Source: Candidatus Micrarchaeota archaeon (GTDB taxonomy: Archaea > Micrarchaeota > Micrarchaeia > Micrarchaeales > CABMGC01). From it: DNA of 64,000 bases. Location of the stretch: NCBI GenBank assembly GCA_021817505.1, contig JAKAUU010000016.1, positions 2,844 through 66,843 on the forward strand, read 5' to 3'. How positions within the stretch are numbered: position 1 is the stretch's first letter; the number at the start of each line of letters is the position of its first letter. Under the pieces are notes generated by a model. The model did not search any database. It was given only the letters and a program-made list of their open reading frames with translations, and was not told where the DNA came from. Shown here piece by piece: positions 19,911-37,560 of the stretch. Position numbers and translations under genes: made by a program.

Positions 19911-20543
19911 ATGGGTATTATGGGGGAGCGCTTGGGCACTTCGAATAATGCATTATTTGAATATTCAGTATGGCTGATTCCTTCAAGGAATTCTGCTTAT
20001 GCAGAGCTTAGGAATGCGATAAATAAGATAAGTTATAAGTATTCGACTCCTTCGTTTGAGCCCCATGTAACATTAATAGGGAGGCTGTTGGTCCCTGAAG
20101 CTTTGGCTATAGAAAAAATATCGGCTATTTCAAATATGGTGGGCCAGATAAAGGTCGAATTTGATCAGATAGACAGGACTGACAAATATTTCAAATCATT
20201 ATTCGTAAGGGTAAAGAAGAGTGATGCGCTTTCAATCGCAGCAAATATTACAAGAGAGGCATTTCAGGAGAAGCATATGTCAGAGTATATGCCGCATTTG
20301 AGCCTTATGTATGCAAATATGCCTTCAGAGATGAAGGATAGGATAATTCATGACTGCAAATTGCAGGCATTGGTCGACAGTATAGATTATGTTGCAATGG
20401 ATAAGGTAAGTCTTTGGCATACTCCTGATGATGTGAGGAGATGGAAGATGATCAGGGAATTTGAACTGGAAAAGCCTGTTGAAGAGTTTAGCCATTATTA
20501 TAAGAATGAGTTGCATTCACATTATACTGCAAAAACAATATGA
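19911..20543 (+). CDS. 2H-phosphoesterase superfamily protein (cyclic phosphodiesterase/LigT-like)
   Basis: Two H-x-T/S-x motifs at the expected spacing: EPHVTLIG and MPHLSLMY. Confidence 0.7.
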   Translation: MGIMGERLGTSNNALFEYSVWLIPSRNSAYAELRNAINKISYKYSTPSFEPHVTLIGRLLVPEALAIEKISAISNMVGQIKVEFDQIDRTDKYFKSLFVRVKKSDALSIAANITREAFQEKHMSEYMPHLSLMYANMPSEMKDRIIHDCKLQALVDSIDYVAMDKVSLWHTPDDVRRWKMIREFELEKPVEEFSHYYKNELHSHYTAKTI

Positions 20544-20556
20544 CATCCTTCCACGT

Positions 20557-20766
20557 CTAAAGACGTGGGTTTCCAACAGGCCGTTTCCTGTATATAGTTC
20601 CTGGATTCATCATGTTTCTTGTGAAGGTCTTGCCGGTTTCTTTGTAATGGCATTTTGCCTTTTCAAGGATAAGGTCGTAGAGCTCCTTTGCAAGGAGCAT
20701 CTGCATGTTCAGGTCTCTCCTCTCCCTCCTTGTCGGATAGACCCTGAACCTGTAACATCGTAACAT
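20557..20766 (-). pseudogene. tnpB: TnpB (IS605 OrfB) remnant: N-terminal ~50 aa fused to the extreme C-terminal tail
   Basis: MLRCYRFRVYPTRRERRDLNMQMLLAKELYDLIL matches the TnpB N-terminal pattern (M..yKfRiYPt.eQ...L......r.vyN). At 69 aa versus the roughly 400 aa expected, most of the protein including the RuvC domain is absent. Confidence 0.7.
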
Positions 20767-20875
20767 AGAATCATCTCTATGTCACCCAGAAACAAGGATA
20801 TCCGGCAGTCAGGTATTATATTTGTTTCACTGCAAATTCATCCAATGCATAAATGCATTGGTTTTCTTTACATAA

Positions 20876-20885
20876 TTTTATAAAA
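20876..20885 (+). promoter_or_regulatory. TATA-box-like TTTTATAAAA about 22-30 nt upstream of the E1 alpha start codons
   Basis: The A/T box sits at the outer edge of the miniature element. Candidate starts are GTG 20907, GTG 20913 and TTG 20916, which implies a leaderless or very short-leader transcript. Confidence 0.4.
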
Positions 20886-20906
20886 CTCTTGCACTAATTC
20901 TTACTG

Positions 20907-21998
20907 GTGCTTGTGTTGAAAAGGGAGGCGTTCAGTGGCAGCGTCACATACTTCCAGATAATGGATGAGAACGGTAATGTAGACAAGGAGCTGATGCCGA
21001 ATTATGTTGATGATAATAAGATACTTGAGATGCTCAAGTACATGGTCCTTGCGCGCGAGATAGATGCTAAGGCCCTGTCGCTTCAGAGACAGGGGCGTGC
21101 AGTAACATACGCTCCGCTTCTTGGGGAAGAGGCGACACAGGTCGGTGCCGCAATGGCGCTGAGGAACAACGATTACTTTGTGCCAAACTTCAGGCAGCAT
21201 GCAGTCTATCTTGTCCGCGGGCTGCCCATGGAGCTTTACTTCCTTTACTGGCGCGGCTATGAAGAGGCGCAGAAGATACCTGAAAATGTAAAGGGATTGC
21301 CGGTGATTGTTCCTGTTTCTACGCAGATGCCGCATGCGGCAGGCATCGCTTTTGCGCAGAAATACCAAAAGACAGGCTCAGCAGTGGTCGCTTTCGTCGG
21401 AGACGGAGGTACCTCGGAGGGCGATTTCTACGAAGCGATAAACTTCGCAGGCGCATGGAATGCCCCTCTTATAACAATAATAGAGAATAACTCATGGGCG
21501 ATATCCGAACCTACAAGGATGCAGACCGCAGCGCAGACTCTTGCGCAGAAGGGAATAGCGGCAGGGATAAAGAGGATAATACAGGTTGACGGCAACGACG
21601 TTATTGCGGTTTACAAGGCAGTAAGGGAAGCGATAGAGGCATCTGATGGAGGTCCGGCAGTGATAGAGGCGCTCACTTATAGGATGGGTCTCCATACCAC
21701 TGCTGATGACCCCACTAAATACAGGCCTGATTCTGAACTTGAGAAGTGGAAGCCCAAGGACCCTATACTAAGGGTAAAAAAATATCTCTCGCAGAAGGGC
21801 TTGTGGAATGATGATATTGAGAAGGCATTCCTTGATGAGAACATGAAGAAGATAGATGAGGCGATAGACAAGGCAGAGAGGTTTGTCCCTGATCCTAAGA
21901 GCATGTTCGAGAATGTATACAGCTTCGTTCCTGATGTTCTGAAGAAGGAGATGGACGAAGCAGTCGGAGAGAATTTCTGGCAGGGTGATTCAGAATGA
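20907..21998 (+). CDS. 2-oxoacid dehydrogenase E1 component, alpha subunit (TPP-dependent)
   Basis: TPP-binding region GDGGTSEGDFYEAINFAGAWNAPLITIIENN. Its stop overlaps the E1 beta start (ATGA at 21995). Confidence 0.9.
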   Translation: MLVLKREAFSGSVTYFQIMDENGNVDKELMPNYVDDNKILEMLKYMVLAREIDAKALSLQRQGRAVTYAPLLGEEATQVGAAMALRNNDYFVPNFRQHAVYLVRGLPMELYFLYWRGYEEAQKIPENVKGLPVIVPVSTQMPHAAGIAFAQKYQKTGSAVVAFVGDGGTSEGDFYEAINFAGAWNAPLITIIENNSWAISEPTRMQTAAQTLAQKGIAAGIKRIIQVDGNDVIAVYKAVREAIEASDGGPAVIEALTYRMGLHTTADDPTKYRPDSELEKWKPKDPILRVKKYLSQKGLWNDDIEKAFLDENMKKIDEAIDKAERFVPDPKSMFENVYSFVPDVLKKEMDEAVGENFWQGDSE

Positions 21999-22960
21999 TG
22001 TCGAATATGGTTACCGCTTTGAACAGTGCGCTTAGCAGCATACTTGAGAATGACAGGAATGCAGTCGTACTTGGGGAGGATGTTGGAAAGGATGGCGGGG
22101 TCTTCAGGGTCACAGACGGCCTTTCCGAGAAATTCGGGGAGAACCGCGTAATAGATACGCCGCTCGCCGAATCGGGCATAATAGGCACGTCGATAGGCAT
22201 GGCGATATCGGGCATGCGCCCCATTCCAGAGATACAGTTTGCAGGCTTCATGTTCCTTGGTTTCAGCCAGCTGGTAAACCATGCTGCAAGATACAGGAGC
22301 AGGAGCAGAGGCTCCTTCAAGGTGCCGATGATAGTGAGGACGCCGGTAAGCGGAGGGGTGCGCACGCTTGAACACCATTCCGAAAGTCCTGAGACCTACT
22401 ACTCGCACATGGGCGGCCTCATAGTGGTTGAGCCGTCCGGACCTTATGATGCAAAAGGGCTTATGATAAAGGCGTCAAAGCTTGATGACCCTGTCGTCTT
22501 CCTTGAACCTACAAAACTCTACAGGTTATTCAAGGAGGAGGTCCCTGAGGAGCCGTATGAGGTTGAGATAGGAAAGGCAAAGACCATTAGAGAGGGGAGT
22601 GAGCTGAGCATAATAACCTATGGGACCATGGTGCCTGTTGTGAAGAGTGTTGTTGAGAAGAGGAAGATTGATGCCGACATAATAGACCTGAGGACGATAA
22701 ACCCTATCGATGAAAACAGTATACTGGAAAGTGTTAAGAAGACCGGAAGGGCGCTTATAGTACATGAGGCATCCCTGAGCTTCGGGGTAGGCGCGGAGGT
22801 ATCGGCGAGAATAGCCGAGAAGGCAATCTTCGACCTTAAGGCGCCTATAATAAGAGTGGCATCGCACTCCCTTCCGTACCCATTCCCAGGTTATGAGAAA
22901 TATTTCATACCTAATGAGCTTAAGGTTTCAAAGGCTATTGACAGGATAATGTCGGTGTAA
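21995..22960 (+). CDS. 2-oxoacid dehydrogenase E1 component, beta subunit
   Basis: VIDTPLAESGIIGTSIGMA and transketolase-like pyrimidine-binding and C-terminal domains; 321 aa. Confidence 0.9.
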   Translation: MMSNMVTALNSALSSILENDRNAVVLGEDVGKDGGVFRVTDGLSEKFGENRVIDTPLAESGIIGTSIGMAISGMRPIPEIQFAGFMFLGFSQLVNHAARYRSRSRGSFKVPMIVRTPVSGGVRTLEHHSESPETYYSHMGGLIVVEPSGPYDAKGLMIKASKLDDPVVFLEPTKLYRLFKEEVPEEPYEVEIGKAKTIREGSELSIITYGTMVPVVKSVVEKRKIDADIIDLRTINPIDENSILESVKKTGRALIVHEASLSFGVGAEVSARIAEKAIFDLKAPIIRVASHSLPYPFPGYEKYFIPNELKVSKAIDRIMSV

Positions 22961-22962
22961 TC

Positions 22963-24180
22963 TTGAAGGAGATAAAATTCGTTGATGTTGGAGAGGGGAT
23001 AACGGAAGGCCATCTGCAGAAGTGGCTGGTCAAGGATGGCGATACCGTAAAGGAGGACCAGGCGGTCGCCCAGATAGAGACGGACAAGGCGATAGTGAAC
23101 ATACCTTCACCGATATCCGGCAGGATAAAGATCAATGCAAAGGAGGATACTGATGTTAAGGTAGGAGACGTGCTTGCAACTGTAGGGGAAGGAGCTGCTG
23201 AAGAGGAGCACAAGAGTGCCCCTGCTGCTACAAAGGGCGCGCAGCAGGAAGCTAAAAAACAGGACACAGCACCTTCTCAGGCAAAAGCTGTTAATGAGGT
23301 ACTCGCTACGCCTTATGTAAGGAAGCTTGCCCGCGACCTTGGAGTGGATCTTGCTTCGGTGCATGGTACAGGGCCGCAAGGCAGGGTCCTTGAGAATGAT
23401 CTCAAGAGTGCTGCGAATCATGCAACCGCTCCTAAGAAGCTTATTCCTAAATTCTCCGAGGTCCTTGAGGAACAGCACTCTGATGAGATAGAGAGGGTGC
23501 CGATGTCGCAGCTCAGGAAGACGATTGCAAAGAACATGGAGCTCTCATGGACAATACCCCGTGCGACGCATATGGATCTGGCAGATGCCAAGCATCTTTC
23601 AGATATTGTGAAAAGGGAGAAGGCGAATGCGGAGAAGTCAGGCTTCAAGCTGACCTTCCTGCCGTTCATAATAAAGGCTGCTGTCGAGGCTCTTAAGGAG
23701 AATCCAGGATTCAATTCAAGCTACGACCATGATAGACAGGAGATAATACTGAAGAAGTATTATAATATAGGGCTTGCTGCAGAATCCCCTGATGGCCTGA
23801 AGGTAGTGGTCATAAGGAATGCCGACAAGAAGAGCATATCTGAGATTGCAAAGGAGATAATGGAGCTGCACAAGAAGGTAGTCGAGAACACGATATCGAT
23901 AGATGAGATGCGCGACGGCACATTCACCATAACCAACATAGGCAGCCTTGGCGGGGGATACCTCTCAGTGCCTATGATAAATTATCCTGAGGTCGGCATA
24001 CTCGGGGTGCATATGATAAAGGAGGTTCCGGTAGTGGAAGACGGGAAGATAGTCATAGGGAGGCAGCTGCCTTTCTCGCTCGTCTTCGACCATAGGGTTG
24101 TCGATGGCGCGGAAGCGGTGAAATTCGGAAATTCTTTCAAGAGATATATTGAGGACCCGGAGTTCCTCGAGATGCTATGA
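22963..24180 (+). CDS. Dihydrolipoamide acyltransferase (E2) with one lipoyl domain
   Basis: Lipoyl attachment site AQIETDKAIVNIPSP, an E3-binding segment (ATPYVRKLARDLGVDL), and the catalytic motif FDHRVVDG. TTG start. Confidence 0.9.
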   Translation: MKEIKFVDVGEGITEGHLQKWLVKDGDTVKEDQAVAQIETDKAIVNIPSPISGRIKINAKEDTDVKVGDVLATVGEGAAEEEHKSAPAATKGAQQEAKKQDTAPSQAKAVNEVLATPYVRKLARDLGVDLASVHGTGPQGRVLENDLKSAANHATAPKKLIPKFSEVLEEQHSDEIERVPMSQLRKTIAKNMELSWTIPRATHMDLADAKHLSDIVKREKANAEKSGFKLTFLPFIIKAAVEALKENPGFNSSYDHDRQEIILKKYYNIGLAAESPDGLKVVVIRNADKKSISEIAKEIMELHKKVVENTISIDEMRDGTFTITNIGSLGGGYLSVPMINYPEVGILGVHMIKEVPVVEDGKIVIGRQLPFSLVFDHRVVDGAEAVKFGNSFKRYIEDPEFLEML

Positions 24181-24181
24181 T

Positions 24182-25546
24182 ATGGTGATGGGCTCCATAC
24201 CTGAAGAGGTAGATATAGCAGTCATAGGGGGAGGAGTTGGCGGCTATGTCGCCGCGATACGCGCTGCAGAGCTCGGCAAGAGCGTAACGATAGTGGAGAA
24301 GGATAAGCTTGGGGGACACTGCCTCAATTATGCATGCATACCCTCAAAGACGATAATACACATAGCTGACCTATTTTACTCTGCAACTCACTCCCAGAAC
24401 CTTGGAATATCAGGTTCCTTGAGCATAGATGCGAAGAGGATGCATGAGTGGAGGATAAGCGTCTCGCAGACTCTTGAGAAAGGGGTCGAGGGGCTCTGCA
24501 GGGCAAACGGGATAGAGATAGTTAAGGGAGAGGCCACCTTCCTCAATTCGAATACGCTTCAGCTTACGAACGGCACCTCGCTCGACTTCAAGAAGGCGAT
24601 AATTGCGACCGGATCCGTTCCGTCTTCTCTCAAAGGCTTTGAATTCAACGGCAGGAATATAATAGACTATAAGCAGGCGCTCTCGCTTGATTACATACCG
24701 AAGAGCATTGCCATAATAGGCGCAGGCTATGTCTCTGTTGAGATCGCAGGGATGTTTGCAAAGCTCGGTTCCTCGGTCCATGTCATAGCAAGGTCCGATG
24801 TGCTCTCAAGGTTCGATCCCGAAGCCGTAGCTTTGGTAAAGAAGAGGCTGGCGAACCTCGGTGCAGTTGTGCATCTTAATGCTGCGCCGTCATCTTATGA
24901 TGGAAAGGTTCTCAGGCTTTCCAGCGGGGAGGAGATACCTGCAGAGGTTGTCGTGGTTGCAATAGGGCTTGTGCCTTATACGGACGGCCTTGAGCTGCAT
25001 AACACAAAGGTCGCTGTTGACGGGAGAGGATTTGTCTCTGTCGATTCATCGCTGCAGACAACTGACCAGAACATACTTGCTATAGGCGATGTAGTCGGGG
25101 AACCGATGCTTGCGCACAAGGCGATAAGACAGGGAGTCATCGCTGCCGAGAAGGCTTCAGGATTGAATTCAGGATTCGACAACATAGTCATACCTGCCGT
25201 AATATTCTCGGACCCGGAGATTGCGATAGCAGGCAGCCTTGATGCAAAGAACGTGAAGAAGTTTCCGATGAGCGCAGTCGGAAGGGGCATTGCGCTTGAC
25301 AGAAAAGAGGGCTTTGTCAAGATGGCTTACGATGATGATAACATAGTCAGGGGTATTGAGATAGTCGGACAGGATGCGAATGCGATGATTGCAGAGGCGG
25401 CGCTTGCGATAGAGATGGGCGCGACTCTCGAAGACATAGCGGATACGATACATCCGCATCCCACATTCTCAGAAGCGGTGCAGGAAGCTGCTGAAGCGGC
25501 GCTCGGAAGGCCTCTTCACTTTTATTACGGAAAGGGGAGCAGATGA
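24182..25546 (+). CDS. lpdA: Dihydrolipoamide dehydrogenase (E3)
   Basis: FAD fold VIGGGVGGY, redox-active disulfide CLNYACIPSK, and C-terminal HPHPTFSE. The start is placed at ATG 24182, 2 nt after the E2 stop; the tracked ORF begins at 24149 inside E2. Confidence 0.9.
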   Translation: MVMGSIPEEVDIAVIGGGVGGYVAAIRAAELGKSVTIVEKDKLGGHCLNYACIPSKTIIHIADLFYSATHSQNLGISGSLSIDAKRMHEWRISVSQTLEKGVEGLCRANGIEIVKGEATFLNSNTLQLTNGTSLDFKKAIIATGSVPSSLKGFEFNGRNIIDYKQALSLDYIPKSIAIIGAGYVSVEIAGMFAKLGSSVHVIARSDVLSRFDPEAVALVKKRLANLGAVVHLNAAPSSYDGKVLRLSSGEEIPAEVVVVAIGLVPYTDGLELHNTKVAVDGRGFVSVDSSLQTTDQNILAIGDVVGEPMLAHKAIRQGVIAAEKASGLNSGFDNIVIPAVIFSDPEIAIAGSLDAKNVKKFPMSAVGRGIALDRKEGFVKMAYDDDNIVRGIEIVGQDANAMIAEAALAIEMGATLEDIADTIHPHPTFSEAVQEAAEAALGRPLHFYYGKGSR

Positions 25547-26322
25547 AGATAACGATAATATGCAAGAAGTACTACAAAGAGATTCAGGAGCTTGAGAAGG
25601 CTTTCGAAGTCTCAAGGAACGGGGACATTTGCATAGCTGTAGGCGGAGACGGAACATTCGTAAAAGCTGCGAGGGAGTTCAACGGGCCGATACTTGCAAT
25701 ACGCGGCAACGAGAGCGATAGTTCGGGCTATTATGCGGATATCAGCATAAGGGAGATGGCGCTCGTTATCAGGAAGCTGAAGAAGAAGGAGTACCTGGTG
25801 GAGAATCTCGGGAATAAGATAGAGCTGTCGTTCAAGGGCAAGAAGCATTATGCAGTCAATGAGATCCTCCTGCACAACTGGCGCGAAGAGGTATACTTCA
25901 GCGTATACTACAGGGATGACCATGCGGAGAAGGCGATATATCCGTACATAATGGCAGGCGACGGCATGCTGGTCACGAGCGAGGTGGGTTCCACCGCATA
26001 CAACAGGTCGGCAGGCGGCCCGGTCATACTCTCGCCAAAACTTCTCTGCGCTACCTTCCTGAATGTAGACGGGCCTTACTCAAATTCGATAATATTGGGG
26101 CCTGACAAGAAGATAGGGGTTAGGATAGAGAAGTACACCGGCGTATTGAGATATGACGGGATAGATGCCGGCAGCATAAAGAAAGGGGAGAGCTTCGAGG
26201 TCTCGTTGTCCAAAAAAGAGCTTAAGATCGTAAGGCTGAACGGAGTCCGCGAGGATATAGCCGTTAAGCTTGCCAGGATAATAAAGGGCAGGATGAGGAG
26301 ACCTGACGGGATAGAGTACTGA
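25543..26322 (+). CDS. nadK: NAD kinase
   Basis: GGDGT motif (IAVGGDGTFV), the NE..L region, and a C-terminal beta-sandwich. Its start overlaps the E3 stop (ATGA). Confidence 0.85.
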   Translation: MKITIICKKYYKEIQELEKAFEVSRNGDICIAVGGDGTFVKAAREFNGPILAIRGNESDSSGYYADISIREMALVIRKLKKKEYLVENLGNKIELSFKGKKHYAVNEILLHNWREEVYFSVYYRDDHAEKAIYPYIMAGDGMLVTSEVGSTAYNRSAGGPVILSPKLLCATFLNVDGPYSNSIILGPDKKIGVRIEKYTGVLRYDGIDAGSIKKGESFEVSLSKKELKIVRLNGVREDIAVKLARIIKGRMRRPDGIEY

Positions 26323-27213
26323 TCAGCGCTTTTTCTGGAAGAATGCATGCCCCAATGCCCTGAATATCAGCTTTGCCGCAAGGAAGTTGGGGGCTATTAA
26401 TCCCGGGATGGGCGCAAGTTCGCAGAAGTCAGCCCCTACGAGTCTTTTCTCCATGAGCAGATTCTTCAGGATAGCGTCCAGCTCTGCAAATCTGATGCCG
26501 TTGGGTTCCGGAGTACCTACGCTTGGCATCTCCCCGTTGTCAAGCACATCCATGTCTATCGTTATGTAGATGTTTTTCTTAGTGCGCTTGCTTATCATGC
26601 TTGCAATCTCCTTTGCTGAAAGATCCCGCATGTCCTTCATGTATAATATGTCATCCGAATATTTCTTTGCGCTCTCGGCATCTATGCTCCTTACTCCTAC
26701 GCTGTAGCAGCTTTTGCATGCCTCCTTCGCGCGTGCCATTATGCATGCGTGCGAGTACCTGCTGCCCATGTACTCATCCCTGTAGTCGGAATGTGCGTCG
26801 AAGTGTATAACACTGAAATCATTCGAATGCTTTGCAATGGCGCGTATGTTGGCTATGGCAAGGGAGTGCTCCCCGCCTATTATTACCGGTATCTTTCCTG
26901 CTTCGATGACAAGAGAGCATTCCTTTTCCAGCCAGTTTATCGTCTCTTCCGGAGAGTTAACGCTTGGCTGCATCTCGTCGGTGGTGTATATCCCTATATC
27001 GGTTATCTCTCGCTTGTACTCTTCGTCGTAGAGTTCGATGTTCCTGCTGGCTTCTATTATCGCATGCGGGCCGTCCCTGGAGCCTGATTTGTACGAAGTA
27101 GTGGAATCATAAGGGACAGGTATCGCGACCACCTTTGCGCTGTCAAAATCCTGGTCTTCTATCCCGAATAAGTTGTATGGGGGCAGTTGATGAAGCAGTT
27201 TCATTATTATCAC
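26323..27213 (-). CDS. speB: Agmatinase (arginase/ureohydrolase family)
   Basis: Mn-binding motifs GGEHS, HFDAHSD and DMDVLD. Confidence 0.85.
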   Translation of the reverse strand: MIIMKLLHQLPPYNLFGIEDQDFDSAKVVAIPVPYDSTTSYKSGSRDGPHAIIEASRNIELYDEEYKREITDIGIYTTDEMQPSVNSPEETINWLEKECSLVIEAGKIPVIIGGEHSLAIANIRAIAKHSNDFSVIHFDAHSDYRDEYMGSRYSHACIMARAKEACKSCYSVGVRSIDAESAKKYSDDILYMKDMRDLSAKEIASMISKRTKKNIYITIDMDVLDNGEMPSVGTPEPNGIRFAELDAILKNLLMEKRLVGADFCELAPIPGLIAPNFLAAKLIFRALGHAFFQKKR

Positions 27214-27232
27214 GCCATTAATCGCAAATTAA

Positions 27233-27637: not shown

Positions 27638-27702
27638 AGGTTAACACTTATAGGACACGTCCGTATATAAAGTATAAACTTTAACAATAATAAACGTTTG
27701 GA

Positions 27703-29687: not shown

Positions 29688-29751
29688 AAAATCACACTAC
29701 TATTATATGGTTCATATTTAAAAGCTATCGGCATAATATGGAATAGATTAA

Positions 29752-30357: not shown

Positions 30358-30358
30358 G

Positions 30359-32068
30359 ATGGATGGCCTTTCTGAGATCATAAGGAAGTATGCGCTGAAG
30401 AATGCGGTCGAGCATGGGAGCGCACGCGATTCCGCGGTTATTGCAAAGGCCATATCCATAGATCCTTCATTGAAAAATGATATGAAGGGGCTTGCCGTAG
30501 AGGTATCCGCCATAGTGAAGGAGGTGAACGCCTTGGACAAGGAAGCCCTTGGCGCAGCTTATGCGGAATACAAGGATGAATTTGAGAAGGAGCATTCCGA
30601 AAAGGCGGTTAAGAGTTCCTCCCACAATTTCACCATAGAGGATGCGGTTGAAGGAGCCTTCAAGACAAGGTTTGCCCCTGAACCGAGCGGTTACATGCAC
30701 ATAGGGCATGCAAAAGCGGTCTTCATAGAGGAGGAGCTTGCAAAAAAATACAAAGGAACAGTCAGCTTATATTTCGACGATACGAACCCTTCGAAGGAGA
30801 GGCAGGAGTTCGTAGACTCGATCAGGAAGGATGCCAAATGGCTCGGGGCCTCGTTTTCTGAGGAATATTACGCAAGCGACAATATGGAATACGAGTACAA
30901 ATGCGCCGAGAAGCTGATAAAGGGCGGCAATGCATATGTCTGCTTCTGCAATGCGGAGATGATCGGGGAGAAGAGGAGCGCGGGTGAGAGATGCGGGCAT
31001 AGGGCGCAGACTGAAGATGCGAACCTGAATTTCTGGAAGAATATGATTAAGGGAGAGTATTCCGAAGGCCAGGCCTCCCTGAGGTTCAAGGGGGATATGA
31101 AGGCCCTTAATACGGTCATGCGTGACCCTGTGCTCTTCAGGATCAAGAAGGACACGCACTACAGGCAGGGGAACAGGTATGCCGCATGGCCATCTTATGA
31201 CTTCAATACTCCGATAATGGATTCCATAAAGGGGATAACCCATGCTGCAAGGAGCAAGGAGTACGAACTTCGCGATGAACTCTATTACAGCATACTTGAC
31301 CTTCTTGGAATGAGGAAGCCCAGAATAATAGAGTTCTCCAGGCTGGAGATTGCAAACAATATAACGAGCAAGAGGCAGACCAATGCGCTTATAGAGGAGG
31401 GAAAGGTATCCGGCTATGAAGACCCGAGGCTTGTAACGATAACCGCTTTGAGAAAGCGGGGGATAAGGCCGCAGGCGATACGCGAATTTGTCCTCAGATC
31501 AGGATTGGGCAGGGCAGAAAGCGTGTCAAGCATGGAGAACCTTCTCTCATATAACAGGAAGGTCATCGACAATGAGTCCAAGAGGCTCTTCTTTGTGAGG
31601 GAGCCGGTCAAATTGGAGGTATCCGGGGCAGCAGATACGGTTGTAAAGTTGCGTTTGCATCCGACAGAGGGCATCGGATCGCGGGAGTACAGATGCGGAA
31701 GCGGCTATTATATTGATTATGATGACGCAGGTTCATTGGAGGAAGGGAGCATGGTGCGCCTCAAAGGAGCGTTTAATATAGAGATAACCGGAGTGGAGGA
31801 TAACCTGGTAAGAGCCGAGTATAAAGGTACGGAAAAGGCAGATGCAAGGATAATCCAGTGGGTTTCTGCGGACAGCTATATCGAATCGAGCCTCACCGTC
31901 ATAAGGGATCTCCTCAGAGGCGAGGATTTCAACGAGGGCAGCATGATGAAGATACGCGGATATGCGGAGAGCTATGCAAGCACGCTTAAGGATAACGAGA
32001 CGGTGCAGTTTGAGAGGATAGGCTTCTTTAAATTCGATAGCAAGGATAAGACCTTCTTCTCCCTGTGA
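30359..32068 (+). CDS. gltX: Glutamate--tRNA ligase (archaeal type)
   Basis: HIGH motif in FAPEPSGYMHIGHAKA, a class I catalytic domain and an archaeal/eukaryal-type anticodon-binding C-terminus; 569 aa. Confidence 0.9.
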   Translation: MDGLSEIIRKYALKNAVEHGSARDSAVIAKAISIDPSLKNDMKGLAVEVSAIVKEVNALDKEALGAAYAEYKDEFEKEHSEKAVKSSSHNFTIEDAVEGAFKTRFAPEPSGYMHIGHAKAVFIEEELAKKYKGTVSLYFDDTNPSKERQEFVDSIRKDAKWLGASFSEEYYASDNMEYEYKCAEKLIKGGNAYVCFCNAEMIGEKRSAGERCGHRAQTEDANLNFWKNMIKGEYSEGQASLRFKGDMKALNTVMRDPVLFRIKKDTHYRQGNRYAAWPSYDFNTPIMDSIKGITHAARSKEYELRDELYYSILDLLGMRKPRIIEFSRLEIANNITSKRQTNALIEEGKVSGYEDPRLVTITALRKRGIRPQAIREFVLRSGLGRAESVSSMENLLSYNRKVIDNESKRLFFVREPVKLEVSGAADTVVKLRLHPTEGIGSREYRCGSGYYIDYDDAGSLEEGSMVRLKGAFNIEITGVEDNLVRAEYKGTEKADARIIQWVSADSYIESSLTVIRDLLRGEDFNEGSMMKIRGYAESYASTLKDNETVQFERIGFFKFDSKDKTFFSL

Positions 32069-32109
32069 TTAAGCGATTGGGATTTTGCAGCTTACATTTA
32101 TGTGATAGT

Positions 32110-32769
32110 ATGGAATTCAAAGATATAATATGGCTGGGACACGCTTCTTTTGCCATCAGGGCAGGGAAGAAACTGTTATACGTTGATCCTTTCAGGATAG
32201 GCGGCTTCTCGGAACATGCGGATACCGTCCTTGTCACGCATCCTCATTTCGACCACTTCAGCGTGGATGAGATAAAGAATGTGTCGGGACAGGAGACGGA
32301 GGTATTCGTGCCGAAGGACTCTGTGGATAAGGTAAAGCATGTGAAGGCAATAGGGGTAGAGCCGTTCAAGAGCTACTCCTCAAACGGGATAAATTTCAGG
32401 ACCATCCCCGCCTATAATGTTGAGAAGGAGAGGCTGCAGTTCCATCCGAGGGCAAATGGCTGGGTAAGTTACATAATCGAGGCAAATGGCTTGAAGATCT
32501 TCCATCCAGGGGATACCGACAATGTTGATGAGATGGAAGGGCTTGATGTTGATATCGCGCTGCTCCCGATAGGAGGCACGTATACCATGGATGTTGACCA
32601 GGCGATAGCAGCTTCGAAGAGGATTAACGCCAAGGCTTTCGTTCCCATGCACTACAAGGCAGTACTCGGAAGGGAGAGAGCGGATGAAGCCGAGCAGAAG
32701 TTCCTGAGGAATGTGAGGAACAGCCACCTTCTGAAGGAGTTCGGAGAGCCTTACTACTCTTTCGAGTGA
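32110..32769 (+). CDS. Metallo-beta-lactamase-fold hydrolase (UPF0173-like)
   Basis: THPHFDH metal-binding motif plus HPGDT and MHY. The start is placed at ATG 32110 (MEFKDIIWLGHASF); the tracked ORF starts at 32065 inside gltX. Confidence 0.75.
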   Translation: MEFKDIIWLGHASFAIRAGKKLLYVDPFRIGGFSEHADTVLVTHPHFDHFSVDEIKNVSGQETEVFVPKDSVDKVKHVKAIGVEPFKSYSSNGINFRTIPAYNVEKERLQFHPRANGWVSYIIEANGLKIFHPGDTDNVDEMEGLDVDIALLPIGGTYTMDVDQAIAASKRINAKAFVPMHYKAVLGRERADEAEQKFLRNVRNSHLLKEFGEPYYSFE

Positions 32770-33581
32770 AAGAGAGATATCGCCTCCCTTGCCGCATCCA
32801 GCATAGCTTCAGGGCTCATTGAGAAAGGCCTTTCTTCCTTGTTTTCCAGCCTCTCCGAGAGGCTTATCGCATCTTCCTTAGCTATTCCCAGCGAGTGCCT
32901 TGAGTCTATGAATGCATTCCTGAGGGTCTTCTTCTTGTGCTGCATTAGAAGGTTTATCATATCGGACTCCTCTTTGCTTATCTCGACCTTCAGGGGCTTG
33001 AGGTATATTATTGAGGAATCGACCTTTGGCACGGGATTGAAATTGCCCCTCTTCACATCCATTATCTTTGTTACGCGCATGCAGAGGTGCGACATCACAC
33101 TTAGCCTTGAGTAGTTGCTCGTGTTAGGCTCTGCAAGCATGTGCTGGACAAATTCCTTCTGCAGGCACAGCACTGCCTGAAGCCTGTTCCCTATAAGGAA
33201 ATCGATCGTCTTGCTTGACAGATTGTAAGGAACATTCGATATCATTATGTCTATCAGTATCTCTTTCAAAAGATCATCGCCTGCCTTGAAGAAGTCGGCG
33301 TTTATCAGTTTTAGGTTCTTCAGCCTTGTAGTAGCGGCAAGTATGCTGTAGAGCTCCCTGTCCTTTTCTACAGCTATGACAAGCTTTGCCTTTTCGCACA
33401 GCTTTTTTGTAAGGATGCCCCTGCCAGGACCGATCTCAATGACATTCTTTCCTTCCGCATGAGCTGCCTCTATCTCGGCTATGTGCTCGTTCACAAGGAA
33501 GACCTGTCCTAGCTTCTTCTTGGGCCTTTTGATCAGCATAATAAAACCGGTTTGATTAACAATATAAACTGTTCTTATCAA
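32754..33581 (-). CDS. rsmA: 16S rRNA (adenine-N6,N6)-dimethyltransferase KsgA/Dim1
   Basis: LGQVFLVN, SAM motif VIEIGPGRGILT, and NVPYNLSS. The likely start is M15 at 33539. The 3' end overlaps the convergent MBL gene by 16 nt. Confidence 0.85.
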   Translation of the reverse strand: MIRTVYIVNQTGFIMLIKRPKKKLGQVFLVNEHIAEIEAAHAEGKNVIEIGPGRGILTKKLCEKAKLVIAVEKDRELYSILAATTRLKNLKLINADFFKAGDDLLKEILIDIMISNVPYNLSSKTIDFLIGNRLQAVLCLQKEFVQHMLAEPNTSNYSRLSVMSHLCMRVTKIMDVKRGNFNPVPKVDSSIIYLKPLKVEISKEESDMINLLMQHKKKTLRNAFIDSRHSLGIAKEDAISLSERLENKEERPFSMSPEAMLDAAREAISLFHSKE

Positions 33582-33604
33582 TTAATAATGAGTAGTGGTG
33601 CAAA

Positions 33605-34933
33605 ATGAAGGGGCAATCAGCCATAGAGTTTATATCCGTCTATGGGTTCATGCTGATAATTGCCGCATTGTTCATCGTACTCGTAATCCTGTTTGCATTT
33701 TCTGCCCAGGGTGCCATCCAGACATCGAAATGCAACGGCTTCACCGGATTCTACTGCACAAGCGCACAGGTTGTCTCTAACACAGTGTCAAAGAATTCGA
33801 TAATATTCCTGGCATTGGACTCGGAGCAGAGCGTTCCGATAAACGTGATAGGGGTAAATTTCATAGTGGGCAACTCGATATATTCAGGCAGATGCACTCC
33901 TTCACTCGCCACGCCCACTGTCCATATAACCTGCACTGCGGCCATGAGCGGCTTTACCAGGCAGGGGATCCAGGTAATAGGCTCGTATATAGTCAATGCG
34001 CAGTACTGCAATTCGCCATTGTATAACGTCAGCATAAAGGACTGTGCATATGACAATGTGACATACAATGGTGAATTTTCAACCTATGCTTCGGATCATC
34101 TGAGCCTTGGATTTGAGAATAATTCTGTTGCTCCGCAGATAGTGGGCGTGATAAACGGGCTTAATCTTCCGGAAGGCATTGCGGTGTCTCCTTCTGGAAC
34201 ACGCGCATACGTGGCGGAACCGTACTCTAGCTTCTATGGGGAGATAGCCGTGATAAGCATCCCTGCAAACTCGGTATCGGGTTCATTCACTTCCGGCCTG
34301 GCCAATCCTTCAGGCGTTGCCGTAGGGACTTCAGGAAGCTATGTGTATGCAACTAATCTTAACTTTTTTGGCGCTACTAAGTATATCGAGGTTGTGAATA
34401 CGGCTACCGGATCCGGCACGACCCAGGTGGATATGTCAGACCAGGAAGCGGCTATTGCAATGGTGCCTTCAGGGGCTTATGCATATGCAAGCGGATATTC
34501 AAACCAGGTGGAGATACTTAATACGGGTACGAACAGCATAACAGGTACGGTTAACATCGGTTATTTCGCATACTATCCAGGCATAGCGATATCTCCGGGT
34601 GGCAAGTATGCATATATTACCAACAATAACGGAAATAACGTACTGATACTTAACACAGCCACAGGTACAGTATCCGGCGCGATAACCTCACCTTCCATAT
34701 TATCTCCCGAAGGGGATGCAATCTCCCCTGATGGAAAGTATCTGTATATAGCGAATGCTGGAGATGAGAACCTGATCATAGTGGACATCGCCACCGGAAA
34801 GATAGTGAACAGCGTTAGCGCAGGATTCAACGGACCGTACGGGGTCGCATTCTCCCCTACAGGATCTCTTGTATATGTCACGAACCAGTATGGCGGCAAT
34901 GTAGTGATAATAAACCCGGGCTCGTATAATTAG
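33605..34933 (+). CDS. Class III signal peptide (type IV pilin-like N-terminus) fused to a YVTN-type beta-propeller
   Basis: MKGQSAIEFISVYGFMLIIAALFIVLVILF is a pilin-like N-terminus. The C-terminal half contains 6-7 blades (GIAVSPSGTRAYVAE, GIAISPGGKYAYITN, GDAISPDGKYLYIAN, GVAFSPTGSLVYVTN). Confidence 0.8.
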   Translation: MKGQSAIEFISVYGFMLIIAALFIVLVILFAFSAQGAIQTSKCNGFTGFYCTSAQVVSNTVSKNSIIFLALDSEQSVPINVIGVNFIVGNSIYSGRCTPSLATPTVHITCTAAMSGFTRQGIQVIGSYIVNAQYCNSPLYNVSIKDCAYDNVTYNGEFSTYASDHLSLGFENNSVAPQIVGVINGLNLPEGIAVSPSGTRAYVAEPYSSFYGEIAVISIPANSVSGSFTSGLANPSGVAVGTSGSYVYATNLNFFGATKYIEVVNTATGSGTTQVDMSDQEAAIAMVPSGAYAYASGYSNQVEILNTGTNSITGTVNIGYFAYYPGIAISPGGKYAYITNNNGNNVLILNTATGTVSGAITSPSILSPEGDAISPDGKYLYIANAGDENLIIVDIATGKIVNSVSAGFNGPYGVAFSPTGSLVYVTNQYGGNVVIINPGSYN

Positions 34934-34964
34934 AGTGGAGCATTGGTCAGACAGAATGGGCATC

Positions 34965-35597
34965 CTACCTTGTCATGCTTGCGATTATTGACTTGTAATT
35001 GGATCTCTGCCTTTCTATGATCTTAATTCGCCTTGTTCTGCTGCCTGCAATCCTCTTGAGCTTAGTCACCTTCTTCCTCTTGAAAAGCCTTAGGATACCT
35101 GATTCCGACATCTTTATCTCGTAGTTTACCCTGCTCATGAAATCAGAATTCCTCTGAAGCATCTTATCATAATAGGCGACCTTCTTGGATATGTCCGATG
35201 AGAAGTTCCCGTAATACTTGGCGATAGAATCTACGCTTCTTGACTTGCAGGTAAGTCCTATGAGGAGAAGGATCGCCATGTCATTGCCGAATACCGACGA
35301 GTAGCCGATTGCGAGGGCCTCCATGTGCTTAAGGTATGCCTTCATTTCCGACCTTGACATCGCTTTGGTATTGTTTATGACATTGGGCATGCAGAATATT
35401 TCATAATCGTAGTTGTTCAGTATGTCTTTTACGTTAGAGACATGCGAATCAAGCTGCTCCTTGACCTCCTTTCCCTGGTGCCTTCCAGACACTAATTCGC
35501 TCTCCCATCTCTTCCTTATTATGTCCTTCAGGGCCGCCTTTTCAAGGCTTACCCTGTCCTGAACCTGATTAACGCCAATCCCTTCTCTGATCGCCAA
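34965..35597 (-). CDS. Hypothetical protein with a strongly basic C-terminus
   Basis: 210 aa, codon-consistent ORF in an otherwise unoccupied slot. No motif recognised. The tail reads KRKKVTKLKRIAGSRTRRIKIIERQRS. Confidence 0.45.
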   Translation of the reverse strand: MAIREGIGVNQVQDRVSLEKAALKDIIRKRWESELVSGRHQGKEVKEQLDSHVSNVKDILNNYDYEIFCMPNVINNTKAMSRSEMKAYLKHMEALAIGYSSVFGNDMAILLLIGLTCKSRSVDSIAKYYGNFSSDISKKVAYYDKMLQRNSDFMSRVNYEIKMSESGILRLFKRKKVTKLKRIAGSRTRRIKIIERQRSNYKSIIASMTR

Positions 35598-35677
35598 ACA
35601 ACCACTTGACCCTATGACCCTTTAAATGAAACAAATTCTCCTGTTAGTATTTTAAATATATGTATTCAGAGCTGCAG

Positions 35678-37186
35678 TCAGAACAGGTATATCGCAAAGC
35701 TCCTCATGAATTTCTTTATGCCCTGATATATGGGGTTTGAATTCCTCTTTACGTCCTTTACCAGCGCCTTGTACTTCCTTTTCTCCTCTGCAGATAGCTG
35801 CCCTTCCTTCACTATCTCCTGTTTCTTCCCGTCAACTATCTGCGTCTCCGTCTTTGATATTATCTCCTTCTTTATCATCGCATACCATTCGTCGAGAGAG
35901 TTCCCCTTCCTCCTGATCATGTTTATGAAGTCTGACATCGTTATTTTCCTTCTTCTCCCGGTCCTGTCCTCCTCTGCAGCAGGTATCAGTGCCGCCTTGT
36001 CGCATATCTCTTCTATGTCCGCCTGGGAGAAGCCCATCGTGGCACGTGCAAGCCTTCCGTATGACATATGCCCCAAAGGCATCTTCCTCGTATTGTAAAT
36101 GAAGGCGCTCTTCCTGGTCTTGTAGTCAGGCGGAGGTATGTATATCGATTCGCCGAATCTCTTGCTCCTCTTCAGCGCAGGGTCTATGTCCCAGGGCTGG
36201 TTGGTCGCCCCTATCACGAATATTCCTTCAGGATTCTTCTCGACACCGTCCATCTCCTGCAGGAACTGGTTTACGGCCATTCGCATGAAACTGCTGCTCT
36301 CTCCGCCTCCTCCGCCGCCTGATCTTTTTGTACCGAGAGCATCAAGCTCGTCGAAGAATACGACGCATGGGGTGTTCTGCCTCGCCTGCTCGAATATCGC
36401 ATGCATGTTCTTTTCAGTATTGCCTGCATACATATCCACTATCTCGTTTATCGCGGCTATCAGCACCTTTGATTTGGTCTCTCCACCGATGGCGTTGACG
36501 AAGTATGTCTTTCCGCAACCCGGCGGACCGTAGAATATGACCCCTAAGCCGAGCTTCTTCCCGTATGCCTTTAGGAGCTCCGGCTTTTTTATCGCAAGCA
36601 CTATGTTCTCGTAGATCAGCTTCTTCTCCTTGCTCATCCCCACTACGTCGCTGAAATTTATCTTCGATTCATGCCATTTCAGTTTCTTTATCTGTCCTTC
36701 CTCGACAACCGTTGATTTTGAAGAGTTGCTGCTGGTATCAGATTCCTTGTTCTGCGGCTCGCCCACAACCACCTTCTGCTTTTTCTCTTCCAGGGCGGCG
36801 AGCCTTGCCTTCGCCTGTTCATAATCAGGATTTCTTGAGAGTGCTTTCTCATACCATTCCTTTGCCCCTTCAAAGTCCTTCTGGTACTCCGCTATTATGC
36901 CCATTATGTATGGCGCGTCGTAGCTGTCAGGTTCGAGCTCCAGAACCTTCTCCGCATCTCGCAAAGCGCTCTCATATTTGTTAAGTATGGCATATGCGAG
37001 TGCCCTGTTGAAATATGCACTTGCGTATTCAGGATCCTGCTTTATCGCCTTCGAGTACATATCGATGGCTTCCTCAAACTGATTGTTCTCGAAGAATGTA
37101 CCTGCCTTCTGGTATGTCTCCTTGGCGTTCGGACTAGGCACATGCTTCGTATTTGTAGAGGAACTTTCGGATTTGCCTGCTGCCAA
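35678..37186 (-). CDS. TPR-repeat + classical AAA ATPase
   Basis: Three N-terminal TPR units (AIKQDPEYASAYFNRALAY...LELEPDSYDAPY...LSRNPDYEQA), Walker A GPPGCGKT, Walker B VVFFDELDA, and a second region of homology (GATNQPWDIDPALKRSKRF). There is an unusual GGGGGG insert after Walker B. TTG start. Confidence 0.8.
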   Translation of the reverse strand: MAAGKSESSSTNTKHVPSPNAKETYQKAGTFFENNQFEEAIDMYSKAIKQDPEYASAYFNRALAYAILNKYESALRDAEKVLELEPDSYDAPYIMGIIAEYQKDFEGAKEWYEKALSRNPDYEQAKARLAALEEKKQKVVVGEPQNKESDTSSNSSKSTVVEEGQIKKLKWHESKINFSDVVGMSKEKKLIYENIVLAIKKPELLKAYGKKLGLGVIFYGPPGCGKTYFVNAIGGETKSKVLIAAINEIVDMYAGNTEKNMHAIFEQARQNTPCVVFFDELDALGTKRSGGGGGGESSSFMRMAVNQFLQEMDGVEKNPEGIFVIGATNQPWDIDPALKRSKRFGESIYIPPPDYKTRKSAFIYNTRKMPLGHMSYGRLARATMGFSQADIEEICDKAALIPAAEEDRTGRRRKITMSDFINMIRRKGNSLDEWYAMIKKEIISKTETQIVDGKKQEIVKEGQLSAEEKRKYKALVKDVKRNSNPIYQGIKKFMRSFAIYLF

Positions 37187-37217
37187 TTATATCACTCTTT
37201 TATATTGAGATCTTGGA

Positions 37218-37560
37218 TTTATATCATTATGCAAAGAAAACCAATGCGTTTATGCATTGGATGAATTTGCAGTGAAACAAATATAATACCTGACTGCCGG
37301 GTATCTTTGTTTCTGGGTGACATGGAGATGATTCTATGTTACGATGTTACAGGTTCAGGGTCTATCCGACAAGGAGGGAGAGGAGAGAGCTGGACAGGCA
37401 GATGCTCCTTGCAAAGGAGCTCTACAGCCTTATCCTTGAAGAGGCAAAATGCCATTACGAAGAAACCGGCAAGACCTTCACAAGAAACATGATGAATCCA
37501 GGAACTGTATACAGGAAACGGCCTGTTGGAAACCCACGTCTTTAGACTTGGGATGATGCC
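37218..37560 (+). mobile_element. Miniature IS200/IS605-derived element, copy B (inverted relative to copy A)
   Basis: Aligns over its whole length to the reverse complement of 20541-20885. Each terminal hairpin carries one mismatch (ccaatgcGtttatgcattgg at 37241-37260; ccacgtctttagacTtgg at 37534-37551). Confidence 0.7.
37336..37545 (+). pseudogene. tnpB: TnpB remnant (N-terminus fused to C-terminal tail), copy B
   Basis: The 69-aa ORF MLRCYRFRVYPTRRERRELDRQMLLAKELYSLIL... differs from copy A at 7 residues. Confidence 0.7.

Follow-up and report, generated by a model that had tools for sequence, protein, structure and literature searches.

In the 64-kb stretch of DNA analysed here (the window), a 16.3-kb block of genes is bracketed by two inverted copies of a 340-bp relic of a tnpB element, and in at least four assemblies of near-identical strains the block has the opposite orientation. 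The reading that we favour, with a probability of roughly 85%, is that two palindrome-associated transposable elements (PATEs) were inserted and that homologous recombination within them has repeatedly inverted the whole block. The best genome matches of the source organism, an uncultured archaeon of the Micrarchaeota (DPANN), are metagenome-assembled genomes (MAGs) of Candidatus Micrarchaeota / Micrarchaeaceae, with an E1-alpha that is 89% identical. A genome of ~1 Mb is typical of the relatives, the complete genome of Ca. Micrarchaeum measuring 0.99 Mb.

A repeat search of the window reported one inverted pair (20538-20884 and 37218-37564), with arms of 347 nt that are 94% complementary and 16,333 nt apart. 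In an ungapped comparison 20 of the 347 positions were mismatched between the arms, and these served as the diagnostic sites for telling copy A from copy B; blastn of arm against arm gave an E-value of 5e-155. An earlier note on this DNA had placed the pair at 20541-20885 and 37218-37560, with about 20 mismatches in about 340 positions, which agrees to within 4 nt at each end. The self-comparison of the window (blastn) that it had proposed for counting copies returned the two arms and no further copy. The element bounds were set by taking TTTAT as the flanking target:

20540-20879, minus strand: PATE copy A, 340 bp, an internally deleted tnpB-only IS200/IS605 element, defined by the inverted repeat and empty sites
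37223-37562, plus strand: PATE copy B, 340 bp, defined by the inverted repeat and the element-free sites of sister species
20885-37217, no strand: invertible block, 16,333 bp, collinear but reversed in contig ERZ27237063:k141_524381 (L009 + L015)

Both copies have the left end towards the block. The right end of copy A adjoins the stop codon of a CPDase gene, the TGA of which (20541-20543) is created at the junction, with TAA at the empty site; that of copy B lies 7 nt beyond the stop codon of an RNase H gene. The genes next to the elements are:

19911-20543, plus strand: CPDase / 2H-phosphoesterase gene, outside the block
20916-21998, plus strand: E1-alpha gene, first of the 2-oxoacid dehydrogenase operon, block-terminal and facing the left end of copy A
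35678-37141, minus strand: TPR-AAA ATPase gene, block-terminal and facing the left end of copy B
37570-37980, minus strand: RNase H gene, outside the block, adjoining the right end of copy B

Regarding the called genes of the block, Pfam confirmed E1 alpha and beta, E2, E3, NAD kinase, an arginase-family protein, a NifU/IscU-like protein, Rpo7, Spt4, GltX, KsgA and the TPR-AAA protein of the earlier gene list, to which a PIN protein, an FKBP, an MBL-fold protein and a 210-aa protein are added. The gene previously named 'pilin-propeller' was recovered as a Lactonase-like beta-propeller, its pilin part being without support in Pfam. Two unannotated genes also lie inside the block.

The element is a 340-bp non-autonomous, tnpB-only derivative of IS200/IS605 of the PATE kind. 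Its description as an IS200/IS605-derived miniature element is borne out by a PF12323 domain, the termini of TnpB, ends that align with those of related elements, covarying hairpins, and the lack of terminal inverted repeats and target duplication. Each copy holds a remnant open reading frame (ORF):

20557-20766, minus strand: remnant ORF of copy A, 69 codons, TnpB residues ~1-54 joined in frame to the last ~16 (ending in NPGTIYRKRPVGNPRL and the stop codon)
37336-37545, plus strand: remnant ORF of copy B, 69 codons

The remnant ORF matches PF12323 (HTH_OrfB_IS605) in Pfam, and both its N- and C-termini match full-length TnpBs of Micrarchaeota. The closest full-length relatives show ~45-60% identity over the N-terminal 50-60 residues only; the tail of the remnant, NPGTIYRKRPVGNPRL, corresponds to ELGTILGSDADGNPHL and ELGTIHGNCAIGNPCL in TnpB tails, each likewise ending at the stop, with equal spacing and weak pairwise support. 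A HMMER scan of 1.8 billion proteins with the remnant ORF returned mostly short proteins, and all eight matches that were scanned against Pfam were HTH_OrfB_IS605, two full-length ones having all three TnpB domains. The full-length tnpB parent that the earlier note had hoped to find was not present in the window, nor was a near-identical protein found in a collection of 15 billion; among the scanned ORFs of the 64-kb window, Pfam identified no TnpA or TnpB gene. Across the Micrarchaeota, full-length TnpB relatives are common. The ORFs of copies A and B differ at 8 nt; because all eight differences alter an amino acid, and because several strains have broken ORFs (45, 52 or 62 aa, frameshifted or truncated), the ORF is called decaying. 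A functional TnpB/omega-RNA (OMEGA) unit was rejected, as RuvC and the Zn-ribbon are missing and only the N-terminal HTH and the 16-aa tail are left.

The ends of the element are marked by hairpins:

20842-20861, minus strand: left-end subterminal hairpin of copy A, CCAATGCA-TTTA-TGCATTGG, folded as DNA
37241-37260, plus strand: left-end subterminal hairpin of copy B, with one G.T pair, folded as DNA
20551-20568, minus strand: right-end terminal hairpin of copy A, CCACGTC-TTTA-GACGTGG, followed by the conserved end AGGATGTCAT
20577-20590, minus strand: right-end inner hairpin of copy A, CAGG-AAACGG-CCTG
37512-37551, plus strand: pair of right-end hairpins of copy B, with one C.T mismatch in the terminal stem

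The left end aligns with that of the full-length Micrarchaeota element in L117 over TTTAT, AGAAAACCA and the hairpin, which in copy A covaries with its counterpart there (CACTGTTT/AAACAGTG). The right end, of which ~70 nt upstream of the boundary survive with the two terminal hairpins included, aligns with the right ends of the L117 and L118 elements, the terminal AGGATGTCAT being conserved. Compared with these two, 6 of the 15 right-end hairpin pairs are kept via changes on both sides, and in this way the pairing of the inner hairpin is maintained in both. Terminal inverted repeats are lacking: when the outermost 40 nt of one end were compared with the reverse complement of those of the other, the best local alignment scored 6, and shuffled sequences scored 5.3 +/- 1.0. 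A classical MITE was rejected, since terminal inverted repeats and target-site duplication are both absent. The element gave no match to Rfam.

PATEs were described in haloarchaea as internally deleted elements of the IS605/IS1341 type, and the features found here match their definition (Dyall-Smith et al. 2011, PMC3119063). Shared are the lack of terminal inverted repeats, palindromes near both ends, the lack of a target duplication, a length too short for a transposase and a deleted core of a tnpB element, the junction here lying in a short (G)ATGAA repeat that relatives carry at both sites. Unlike the haloarchaeal PATEs, to which it is likened by features and not by sequence, the present element resides in a DPANN host (Micrarchaeota), was detected in two copies and has an in-frame deletion that leaves a 69-codon fusion ORF of N- and C-terminus. 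The published layout of archaeal solo-tnpB elements (PMC10640517), in which TTTAT is combined with a pair of hairpins at the 3' end, is likewise retained: as in the solo-tnpB (IS1341-group) elements of S. islandicus REY15A and in L117 and L118, TTTAT stands 5' of the left end and two hairpins near the 3' terminus of the right end overlap the 3' end of tnpB. With the L117 and L118 elements the ends, the N-terminus and the C-terminal tail are homologous, whereas ~1 kb of tnpB, including RuvC and the Zn-ribbon, is absent here, and with that part probably most of the presumed omega-RNA scaffold. The element would have arisen from a tnpB element of ~1.35 kb through the in-frame loss of ~1 kb of internal sequence. 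What remains is the left end and its hairpin, ~54 codons of the N-terminus, the final ~16 codons and a right end that still has both terminal hairpins; the element has neither a nuclease nor a transposase of its own.

The target motif stands directly 5' of the left end of each copy:

20880-20884, minus strand: target motif TTTAT of copy A
37218-37222, plus strand: target motif TTTAT of copy B

TTTAT flanks both copies as well as the full-length element in L117 (n = 3), and it is the left-end motif reported for the solo-tnpB elements of S. islandicus (PMC10640517). On the plus strand the motif of copy A falls within TTTATAAAA, the TATA box of the E1-alpha operon, and on the minus strand that of copy B falls within ATATAAAT, a conserved box located upstream of the TPR-AAA gene; in both insertions (n = 2) the TATA box of the faced gene is the insertion site. 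These two insertions suggest archaeal TATA boxes as landing sites for those tnpB elements that target TTTAT. A conspecific contig (L108), in which the left and right flanks of copy A meet without the element, provides the empty site A, CTGCAAAAACAATAT joined directly to AAAACTCTTGCAC, so the insert is exactly 340 bp without target duplication, with a placement ambiguity of 3 nt; the sister-species sites are also consistent with an absent target duplication. The empty site adjoins a highly divergent CPDase allele, and it may represent allele replacement, not a recent insertion or excision. Mobility of the element, which in a PATE would be driven in trans by a Y1 transposase (TnpA), is inferred from the empty sites, the presence/absence polymorphism at site A being the one indirect sign of it.

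In sister species CPDase and E1-alpha, and RNase H and TPR-AAA, are each adjacent, with no element at either site. Because these species share the gene order of the window without having either copy, the window orientation is the ancestral one, and the idea that the window itself could mark a past inversion did not hold. Since the two copies occur together in the ancestral order, the second was not made by inversion. Two PATE copies would have been inserted in this species lineage, each 3' of TTTAT and without target duplication.

The inverted state is documented entirely in assembled contigs (metagenome assemblies and MAGs), mostly of one re-assembly project. Conspecific public contigs are 99.3-99.8% identical; the block is inverted in GCA_027334075.1, ERZ27237063, ERZ27236945 and ERZ27237200, and the window order was found in at least 14 other assemblies. 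The earlier prediction that the block could exist in either orientation within a population has therefore come true among near-identical strains. The junction RNase H-element-E1 was found in L008/L110, L009 and L116, and the junction CPDase-element-TPR-AAA in L015 and L018; L009 and L015 are one contig of 54.5 kb (ERZ27237063:k141_524381) that has both junctions, with its elements 16,334 nt apart. The junction elements are chimeras of A and B, with the following crossover intervals:

20720-20760, minus strand: crossover interval 1, element positions 124-164, in GCA_027334075.1 (L008/L110), by SNP typing
20675-20704, minus strand: crossover interval 2, element positions 180-209, reciprocal at both junctions of ERZ27237063:k141_524381 (L009, L015)

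In ERZ27236945 (L018) SNP typing placed the crossover at element positions 140-164, and one junction element is an A-B-A-B mosaic. Each half of a chimera matches the expected parental copy in its lineage-specific SNPs, and the inverted contigs belong to two different strain sub-lineages. Because the elements at the junctions combine A and B sequence, exchanged reciprocally at differing positions, the assembled sequences indicate recurrent homologous recombination, not a site-specific switch or mis-assembly.

An artefact, in which the assembler collapsed the repeat and misjoined its flanks, the window order being the only one in the real population, is quite improbable. Repeats are a classic source of mis-joins, all inverted examples are short-read metagenome contigs and several contigs end at or near the element (L019-L021); however, the identical run between the two copies on any one contig is at most 64 bases, which is far below the assembly k of 141 (part of the contig names) and should keep the copies apart in the final graph. 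Such misjoining would also have to produce a single contig with both reciprocal junctions and matching crossover intervals, crossover points that vary among assemblies in chimeras with the expected SNPs, and the same inverted order in two sub-lineages. That the two copies are independent insertions without any role in rearrangement, as the ancestral gene order of the window could suggest, is very unlikely, being contradicted by the directly observed inverted alleles with chimeric elements unless those contigs are artefacts.

Equally unlikely is an inversion by the transposition machinery (alternative or replicative transposition, or TnpB/omega-RNA cleavage and repair) in place of homologous recombination. 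The exchange points are internal to the elements and reciprocal, not at the ends, the second copy did not arise by inversion and the window holds no TnpA or TnpB gene. The peel-and-paste transposition of IS200/IS605 elements is non-replicative, which also counts against this route. In its favour are the structurally intact hairpins of both ends and the abundance of full-length TnpB relatives in the phylum (also PMC13343696).

A programmed site-specific switch, with the repeats as recombinase targets and flipping as a regulator of the flanking operons, is scarcely credible even though the repeats abut the promoters of both block-terminal genes, the inversion recurs in the population and the Hin/Gin and fim switches (survey in PMC9881135) likewise involve a segment between inverted repeats, of which one population contains both orientations, for here, unlike in those systems, Pfam found no invertase or integrase gene among the scanned ORFs in the block, nearby or in the 64-kb window, the crossovers lie at varied positions along the 340 bp with no fixed site, the terminal genes keep their promoter-proximal sequence either way with no promoter swapped and no coding sequence altered, and the repeats are transposon remnants absent from sister species.

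Under homologous recombination, the inverted copies 16.3 kb apart would be substrates for the general machinery (presumably RadA-type), and reciprocal crossovers within the elements would flip the whole block, repeatedly, in the natural population. The ancestral order predominates and the inverted order occurs in several strains. Because the crossovers fall inside the elements, each block-terminal gene retains its own left-end-proximal promoter, and the inversion is for that reason probably nearly neutral. Like the inversions associated with Galileo/BuT5 in Drosophila (PMC2775673, PMC3698922) and IS-flanked inversions in bacteria, the present one is bounded at both breakpoints by mobile-element copies in inverted orientation, leaves chimeras of these copies upon exchange and is polymorphic within a species; unlike in those cases, the repeats, at 340 bp and with 6% divergence, are very short, the genome is small and several independent crossovers can be read from public metagenome assemblies.

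A more far-reaching joint reading, in which the two PATE copies are more than neutral substrates of recombination, this tnpB family homes systematically into archaeal TATA boxes through its TTTAT target and replaces the BRE upstream of the box for the faced gene, and the recurrent 16-kb flip is a maintained polymorphism, is unlikely. If true, the flip would swap the upstream gene, CPDase or RNase H, from which read-through enters the 2-oxoacid dehydrogenase operon, or else alter how that operon is oriented to replication, in a DPANN archaeon with a reduced genome; in a variant, the right-end hairpins would still give a short guide-like RNA for a TnpB acting in trans, and this RNA would run antisense into the neighbouring gene at its 3' end.

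The inversion is well documented but mechanistically ordinary and repeat-mediated, and leaves the understanding of transposon-mediated inversions unchanged. What it adds is that one pair of relics, 340 bp long and 6% diverged, repeatedly turns round 16 kb of core genes for metabolism and information processing within one DPANN species, with crossover points at near-nucleotide resolution and a known ancestral state, obtained from public metagenome assemblies alone. From these repeated inversions with mapped crossovers, homologous recombination appears to be active in Micrarchaeota and to tolerate a divergence of about 6%. The case is also a warning that synteny in MAGs near short transposon-derived repeats may vary between strains for real biological reasons.

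A repeat search over the whole window returned one inverted pair only (20538-20884 and 37218-37564; arms of 347 nt, 94% complementary, with 16,333 nt between them). The arms, which contain the element copies A (20540..20879) and B (37223..37562), show 20 mismatches in an ungapped comparison and match each other with E = 5e-155 in blastn; the arm coordinates and the mismatch count proposed in the earlier note were thus right to within a few bases. No further element-like sequence was detected by blastn of the window. Rfam yielded no family at gathering score anywhere in the window, and the element itself gave only chance-level matches (E >= 1.4) at relaxed thresholds. A tRNA scan of the window found no genes, so an integrase/tRNA island is ruled out. 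The exact right-end pattern CCTGTTNGAAACCCACGTCTTTAGAC had no matches in the GTDB species representatives, nor in the JGI metagenome collection, although a JGI contig (L001) carries the element; this collection evidently does not include that contig.

With the element read from its left end, copy A is on the minus strand and copy B on the plus strand. The element, in which no terminal inverted repeats were found, has the following parts.

Parts of the 340-bp element, from left end to right end
TTTAT: start of homology
CCAATGCA-TTTA-TGCATTGG: perfect subterminal left-end hairpin, after the TTTAT start
Element middle: AT-rich stretch and second hairpin, then a 69-codon ORF, MLRCYRFRVYPTRRERR...NPGTIYRKRPVGNPRL (stop)
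Last ~70 nt (right end): hairpins CAGG-AAACGG-CCTG and CCACGTC-TTTA-GACGTGG, terminal sequence AGGATGTCAT

The ORF of copy B matches Pfam PF12323 (HTH_OrfB_IS605) with 21.9 bits, above the cut-off of 21, and that of copy A scores 17.9 bits. The ORF is not maintained: all eight nucleotide differences between its A and B versions change an amino acid and several strains have frameshifted or truncated versions of 45, 52 or 62 aa. (The 90%-identity cluster with the 45-52-aa truncated variants also lists a 466-aa epoxide hydrolase of the frog Ranitomeya, almost certainly a database clustering artefact.) Folded as RNA (window 20520-20884, minus strand), the whole element reaches -112 kcal/mol, as compared with -81 kcal/mol in shuffled controls (z = -6.4); the predicted fold includes long-range pairing of the left-end interior (GGAUAUCCUUGUUUCUGG) with the right end. 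The stability is explained by several local hairpins, and no RNA function is claimed from it.

A word-indexed search of 5.8 billion proteins with the 69-aa ORF returned only the element's own variants and no close full-length parent protein, the tnpB parent that the earlier note had proposed to look for. Every member of the ORF protein cluster is of A type, of B type or an A/B recombinant, and none points to a third insertion site. In an exhaustive HMMER scan, 1.8 billion representatives gave a list of 40 matches, and most of these 40 closest relatives listed are short proteins (60-260 aa). Eight of the matches were scanned with Pfam and each has the N-terminal HTH domain of TnpB; among the eight are P0143 (67% identical), P0144 (61% identical, with the OrfB_IS605 domain) and the full-length TnpBs P0165 and P0174 with all three TnpB domains. 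P0144 leads as a query to a large clade of ~400-aa TnpBs, many annotated Micrarchaeota, whose C-termini (..ELGTILGSDADGNPHL and ..ELGTIHGNCAIGNPCL, each followed by the stop) match the tail of the element ORF with identical spacing, the pairwise support being weak. On this tail match the ORF is an in-frame fusion of ~54 N-terminal and ~16 C-terminal TnpB codons, roughly 1 kb having been lost. A frame-shifted right-end reading ('ETHVFRRGR') as the TnpB tail was rejected, as the in-frame tail GTI......GNPRL (stop) fits real TnpB C-termini. The sequence (G)ATGAA occurs at both the 5' and 3' junction sites in relatives, which is consistent with a repeat-mediated core deletion as described for haloarchaeal PATEs (PMC3119063). 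A second internally deleted TnpB in the representative library, P0149 (148 aa), has the N-terminal HTH fused to the C-terminal Zn-ribbon/TNB part and tail; in-frame internal deletions have thus arisen more than once among these TnpBs.

The DNA of two full-length elements, L117 (GCA_964419095.1) and L118, can be aligned with the element at the right end, where both hairpins are kept by compensatory changes (two-sided in 6 of 15 pairs) and the TTTA loop and terminal AGGATGTCAT are conserved. The left end of L117 also aligns (TTTAT, AGAAAACCA, a covarying hairpin, then AATACCTG). The same architecture is known from the solo-tnpB elements of S. islandicus, in which TTTAT adjoins the left end and the right end has a pair of hairpins at its 3' end (PMC10640517); IS200/IS605 elements have been reported from >65% of Micrarchaeota genomes (PMC13343696). 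By every testable criterion the element is a PATE, a non-autonomous IS200/IS605 derivative, and the derivation first suggested from the sequence stands on the PF12323 match, the likeness to both TnpB termini and the alignment of both ends with full-length elements. It is neither a classical MITE, as terminal inverted repeats and a target duplication are lacking, nor a functional TnpB/omega-RNA unit.

E1-alpha, the block gene next to copy A, is matched best by proteins of MAGs labelled Candidatus Micrarchaeota or Micrarchaeaceae: the top three are 89% identical, the next 82% and those after it <=69%. None of these MAGs holds the element, and the GTDB set searched has no species-representative genome closely matching the species. 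Exact-protein look-ups retrieved some 25 contigs (ENA, JGI and NCBI assemblies) with 99.3-99.8% identity to the window; the species is therefore well sampled in public metagenomes.

The conspecific contig ERZ27237304:k141_977855 (loci L108 and L006 are its parts) has copy B and an empty site A. The latter reads ...CTGCAAAAACAATATAAAACTCTTGCAC..., in which the left and right flanks of copy A are joined exactly; the insert is therefore 340 bp long and without target duplication, its placement being ambiguous by 3 nt (TAT). The stop codon of CPDase, the gene outside copy A, is TAA in the empty site and TGA at the copy A junction, so the C-terminal end of the protein is unchanged. In the closest sister species CPDase is followed directly by E1-alpha (sequence CAATATAAAACTCTTGCAC), with no copy A. 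At site B, sister species whose RNase H is 82% and 64% identical carry TPR-AAA ~45-50 nt after that gene; just past the RNase H stop, the more distant sister (L115) has ATATAAATC and the closer sister (L112-L114) the similar AATATAAACC, and in the window copy B splits the ATATAAAT sequence that corresponds to these. Both targets read TTTAT^AT on the element strand, cut after TTTAT or TTTATA (both ambiguity ranges combined), which places each insertion inside the TATA-like box of the gene faced by the left end, a generalisation from n = 2. CPDase (a 2H phosphoesterase) occurs as two very different alleles within the species (window 19906-20541; L108:4266-4889): the flanks of the empty-site-A contig are 98-100% identical to the window, the gene itself only ~65% (nucleotides) or 48% (amino acids). 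The divergent tract ends at the copy A insertion point, and the sister-species protein shares only 41-48% identity with either allele.

Most contigs have RNase H, the element and then TPR-AAA, as in the window; at three loci RNase H and the element are followed by the E1 operon.

Loci with the inverted order, with the crossover in element positions
L008/L110 (NCBI GCA_027334075.1): RNase H-element-E1 operon; crossover of L008 at 124-164
L009 (ERZ27237063): RNase H-element-E1 operon; crossover at 180-209, reciprocal with L015
L116 (ERZ27237200, 541-bp contig): RNase H-element-E1 operon; A-B-A-B mosaic
L015 (ERZ27237063): CPDase-element-TPR-AAA; crossover at 180-209, reciprocal with L009
L018 (ERZ27236945): CPDase-element-TPR-AAA; crossover at 140-164

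L009 and L015 lie on a single 54.5-kb contig with its elements 16,334 nt apart, and the entire block between them is collinear with the window, reversed. When typed at the 20 diagnostic sites, the junction elements of the inverted contigs are A/B chimeras, in which the left-end side is always that of the copy belonging with the block gene and the right-end side that of the copy belonging with the outside gene. Each chimera half also bears the SNPs private to its expected parent copy in related strains (70G/124T for left-end halves of A type; 164A/172T/262G for B-type parts), and the inverted contigs fall in two strain sub-lineages. At least two reciprocal exchanges, and probably three or more, have therefore taken place independently and at varying positions, which is the signature of general homologous recombination and not of a site-specific recombinase. 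That the block exists in either orientation within the population, and that the repeats serve as substrates of homologous recombination, had been suggested from the window; the inverted contigs and their chimeric elements bear out both. Of the block genes and window ORFs scanned, none encodes a recombinase or transposase, and the element pair does not qualify as a programmed invertible switch. Many B copies (L002-L021, L102-L111) hold A-type bases at scattered diagnostic sites (e.g., 83, 209, 223, 336), which, with the mosaic of L116, suggests gene conversion between the copies besides crossovers.

The inverted state is read from assembled contigs, and its origin by mis-assembly is unlikely. 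The longest identical run between the copies is 39-64 nt in every contig allowing comparison and the contigs are named k141; at k = 141, runs of <=64 nt would leave the copies apart in the assembly graph. Moreover, such an artefact would need two mis-joins that compensate each other within one contig, and the same again in other assemblies at other switch points.

In sister species both junctions show the gene order of the window, and neither copy is present. The window orientation is therefore the ancestral one, the two insertions are confined to this species lineage, and the inverted alleles are the derived state. The window itself is thus not the product of a past inversion, as the earlier note had considered; its alternative of two insertions with no rearrangement role agrees with the sisters, in gene order and in element-free borders, but not with the inverted conspecific contigs. 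The copies differ by 6% and the strains by 0.2-0.7%, so the copies are older than the sampled strain diversity, or one came from a diverged source; recent A-to-B copying is unlikely on the same figures. Formation of the second copy by replicative inversion is rejected, as the two-copy state occurs with the ancestral gene order.

Further features were recorded in the window and in relatives. An AT-rich non-coding region of ~700 bp (10716-11401; GC ~0.39 in the 10-12 kb bin), possibly promoter or origin-like, holds degenerate AT-rich 41-nt repeats (family D8) and sits between a Fic-domain gene and a surface-protein gene (11402-15292, minus strand). The latter encodes 1296 aa with weak Lactonase/beta-propeller and Ig_3 matches, ~129-bp periodic repeats and an internal 120-nt duplication (12602-12721 and 13688-13807, 98% identity); it is only 50-60% identical to the sister-species protein, as compared with ~86% for neighbouring genes, and is therefore a fast-evolving repeat protein. 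Two tandem FtsZ/tubulin-family paralogues (4382-5413 and 5438-6487, minus strand) adjoin an ATP-dependent DNA ligase. A 76-nt direct repeat (39168-39243 and 60077-60152, 74% identity) lies within unannotated minus-strand ORFs without Pfam match (38780-39268 and 59602-60171), probably paralogous small proteins with a common N-terminal segment. The TPR-AAA protein has 487 aa and no intein in the window; its orthologue in the more distant relative (L115:5452-8022, GCA_009712145.1) has 856 aa with an intein (Intein_splicing and LAGLIDADG_3). In one sister-species contig (L112:1-2048), the stretch upstream of the RNase H neighbourhood has genes of lanthipeptide type (LanC-like and RamC_N/protein-kinase), where the window and L113/L114 have T2SSE and PMT_2 genes instead.

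The exchanges fall within the elements, so E1-alpha and TPR-AAA each keep their promoter sequence next to the left end whichever way the block lies, and no genes are disrupted. The flip gives these two genes a different co-directional neighbour upstream (CPDase or RNase H) and turns 16 kb of genes around on the chromosome; the inversion is thus probably close to neutral. That inverted transposon copies can recombine ectopically and invert the DNA between them is textbook biology. This case is distinguished by its host, a DPANN archaeon with a reduced genome, by repeats that are very short and diverged, by several independent crossovers readable in public data, and by the apparent targeting of TATA boxes.
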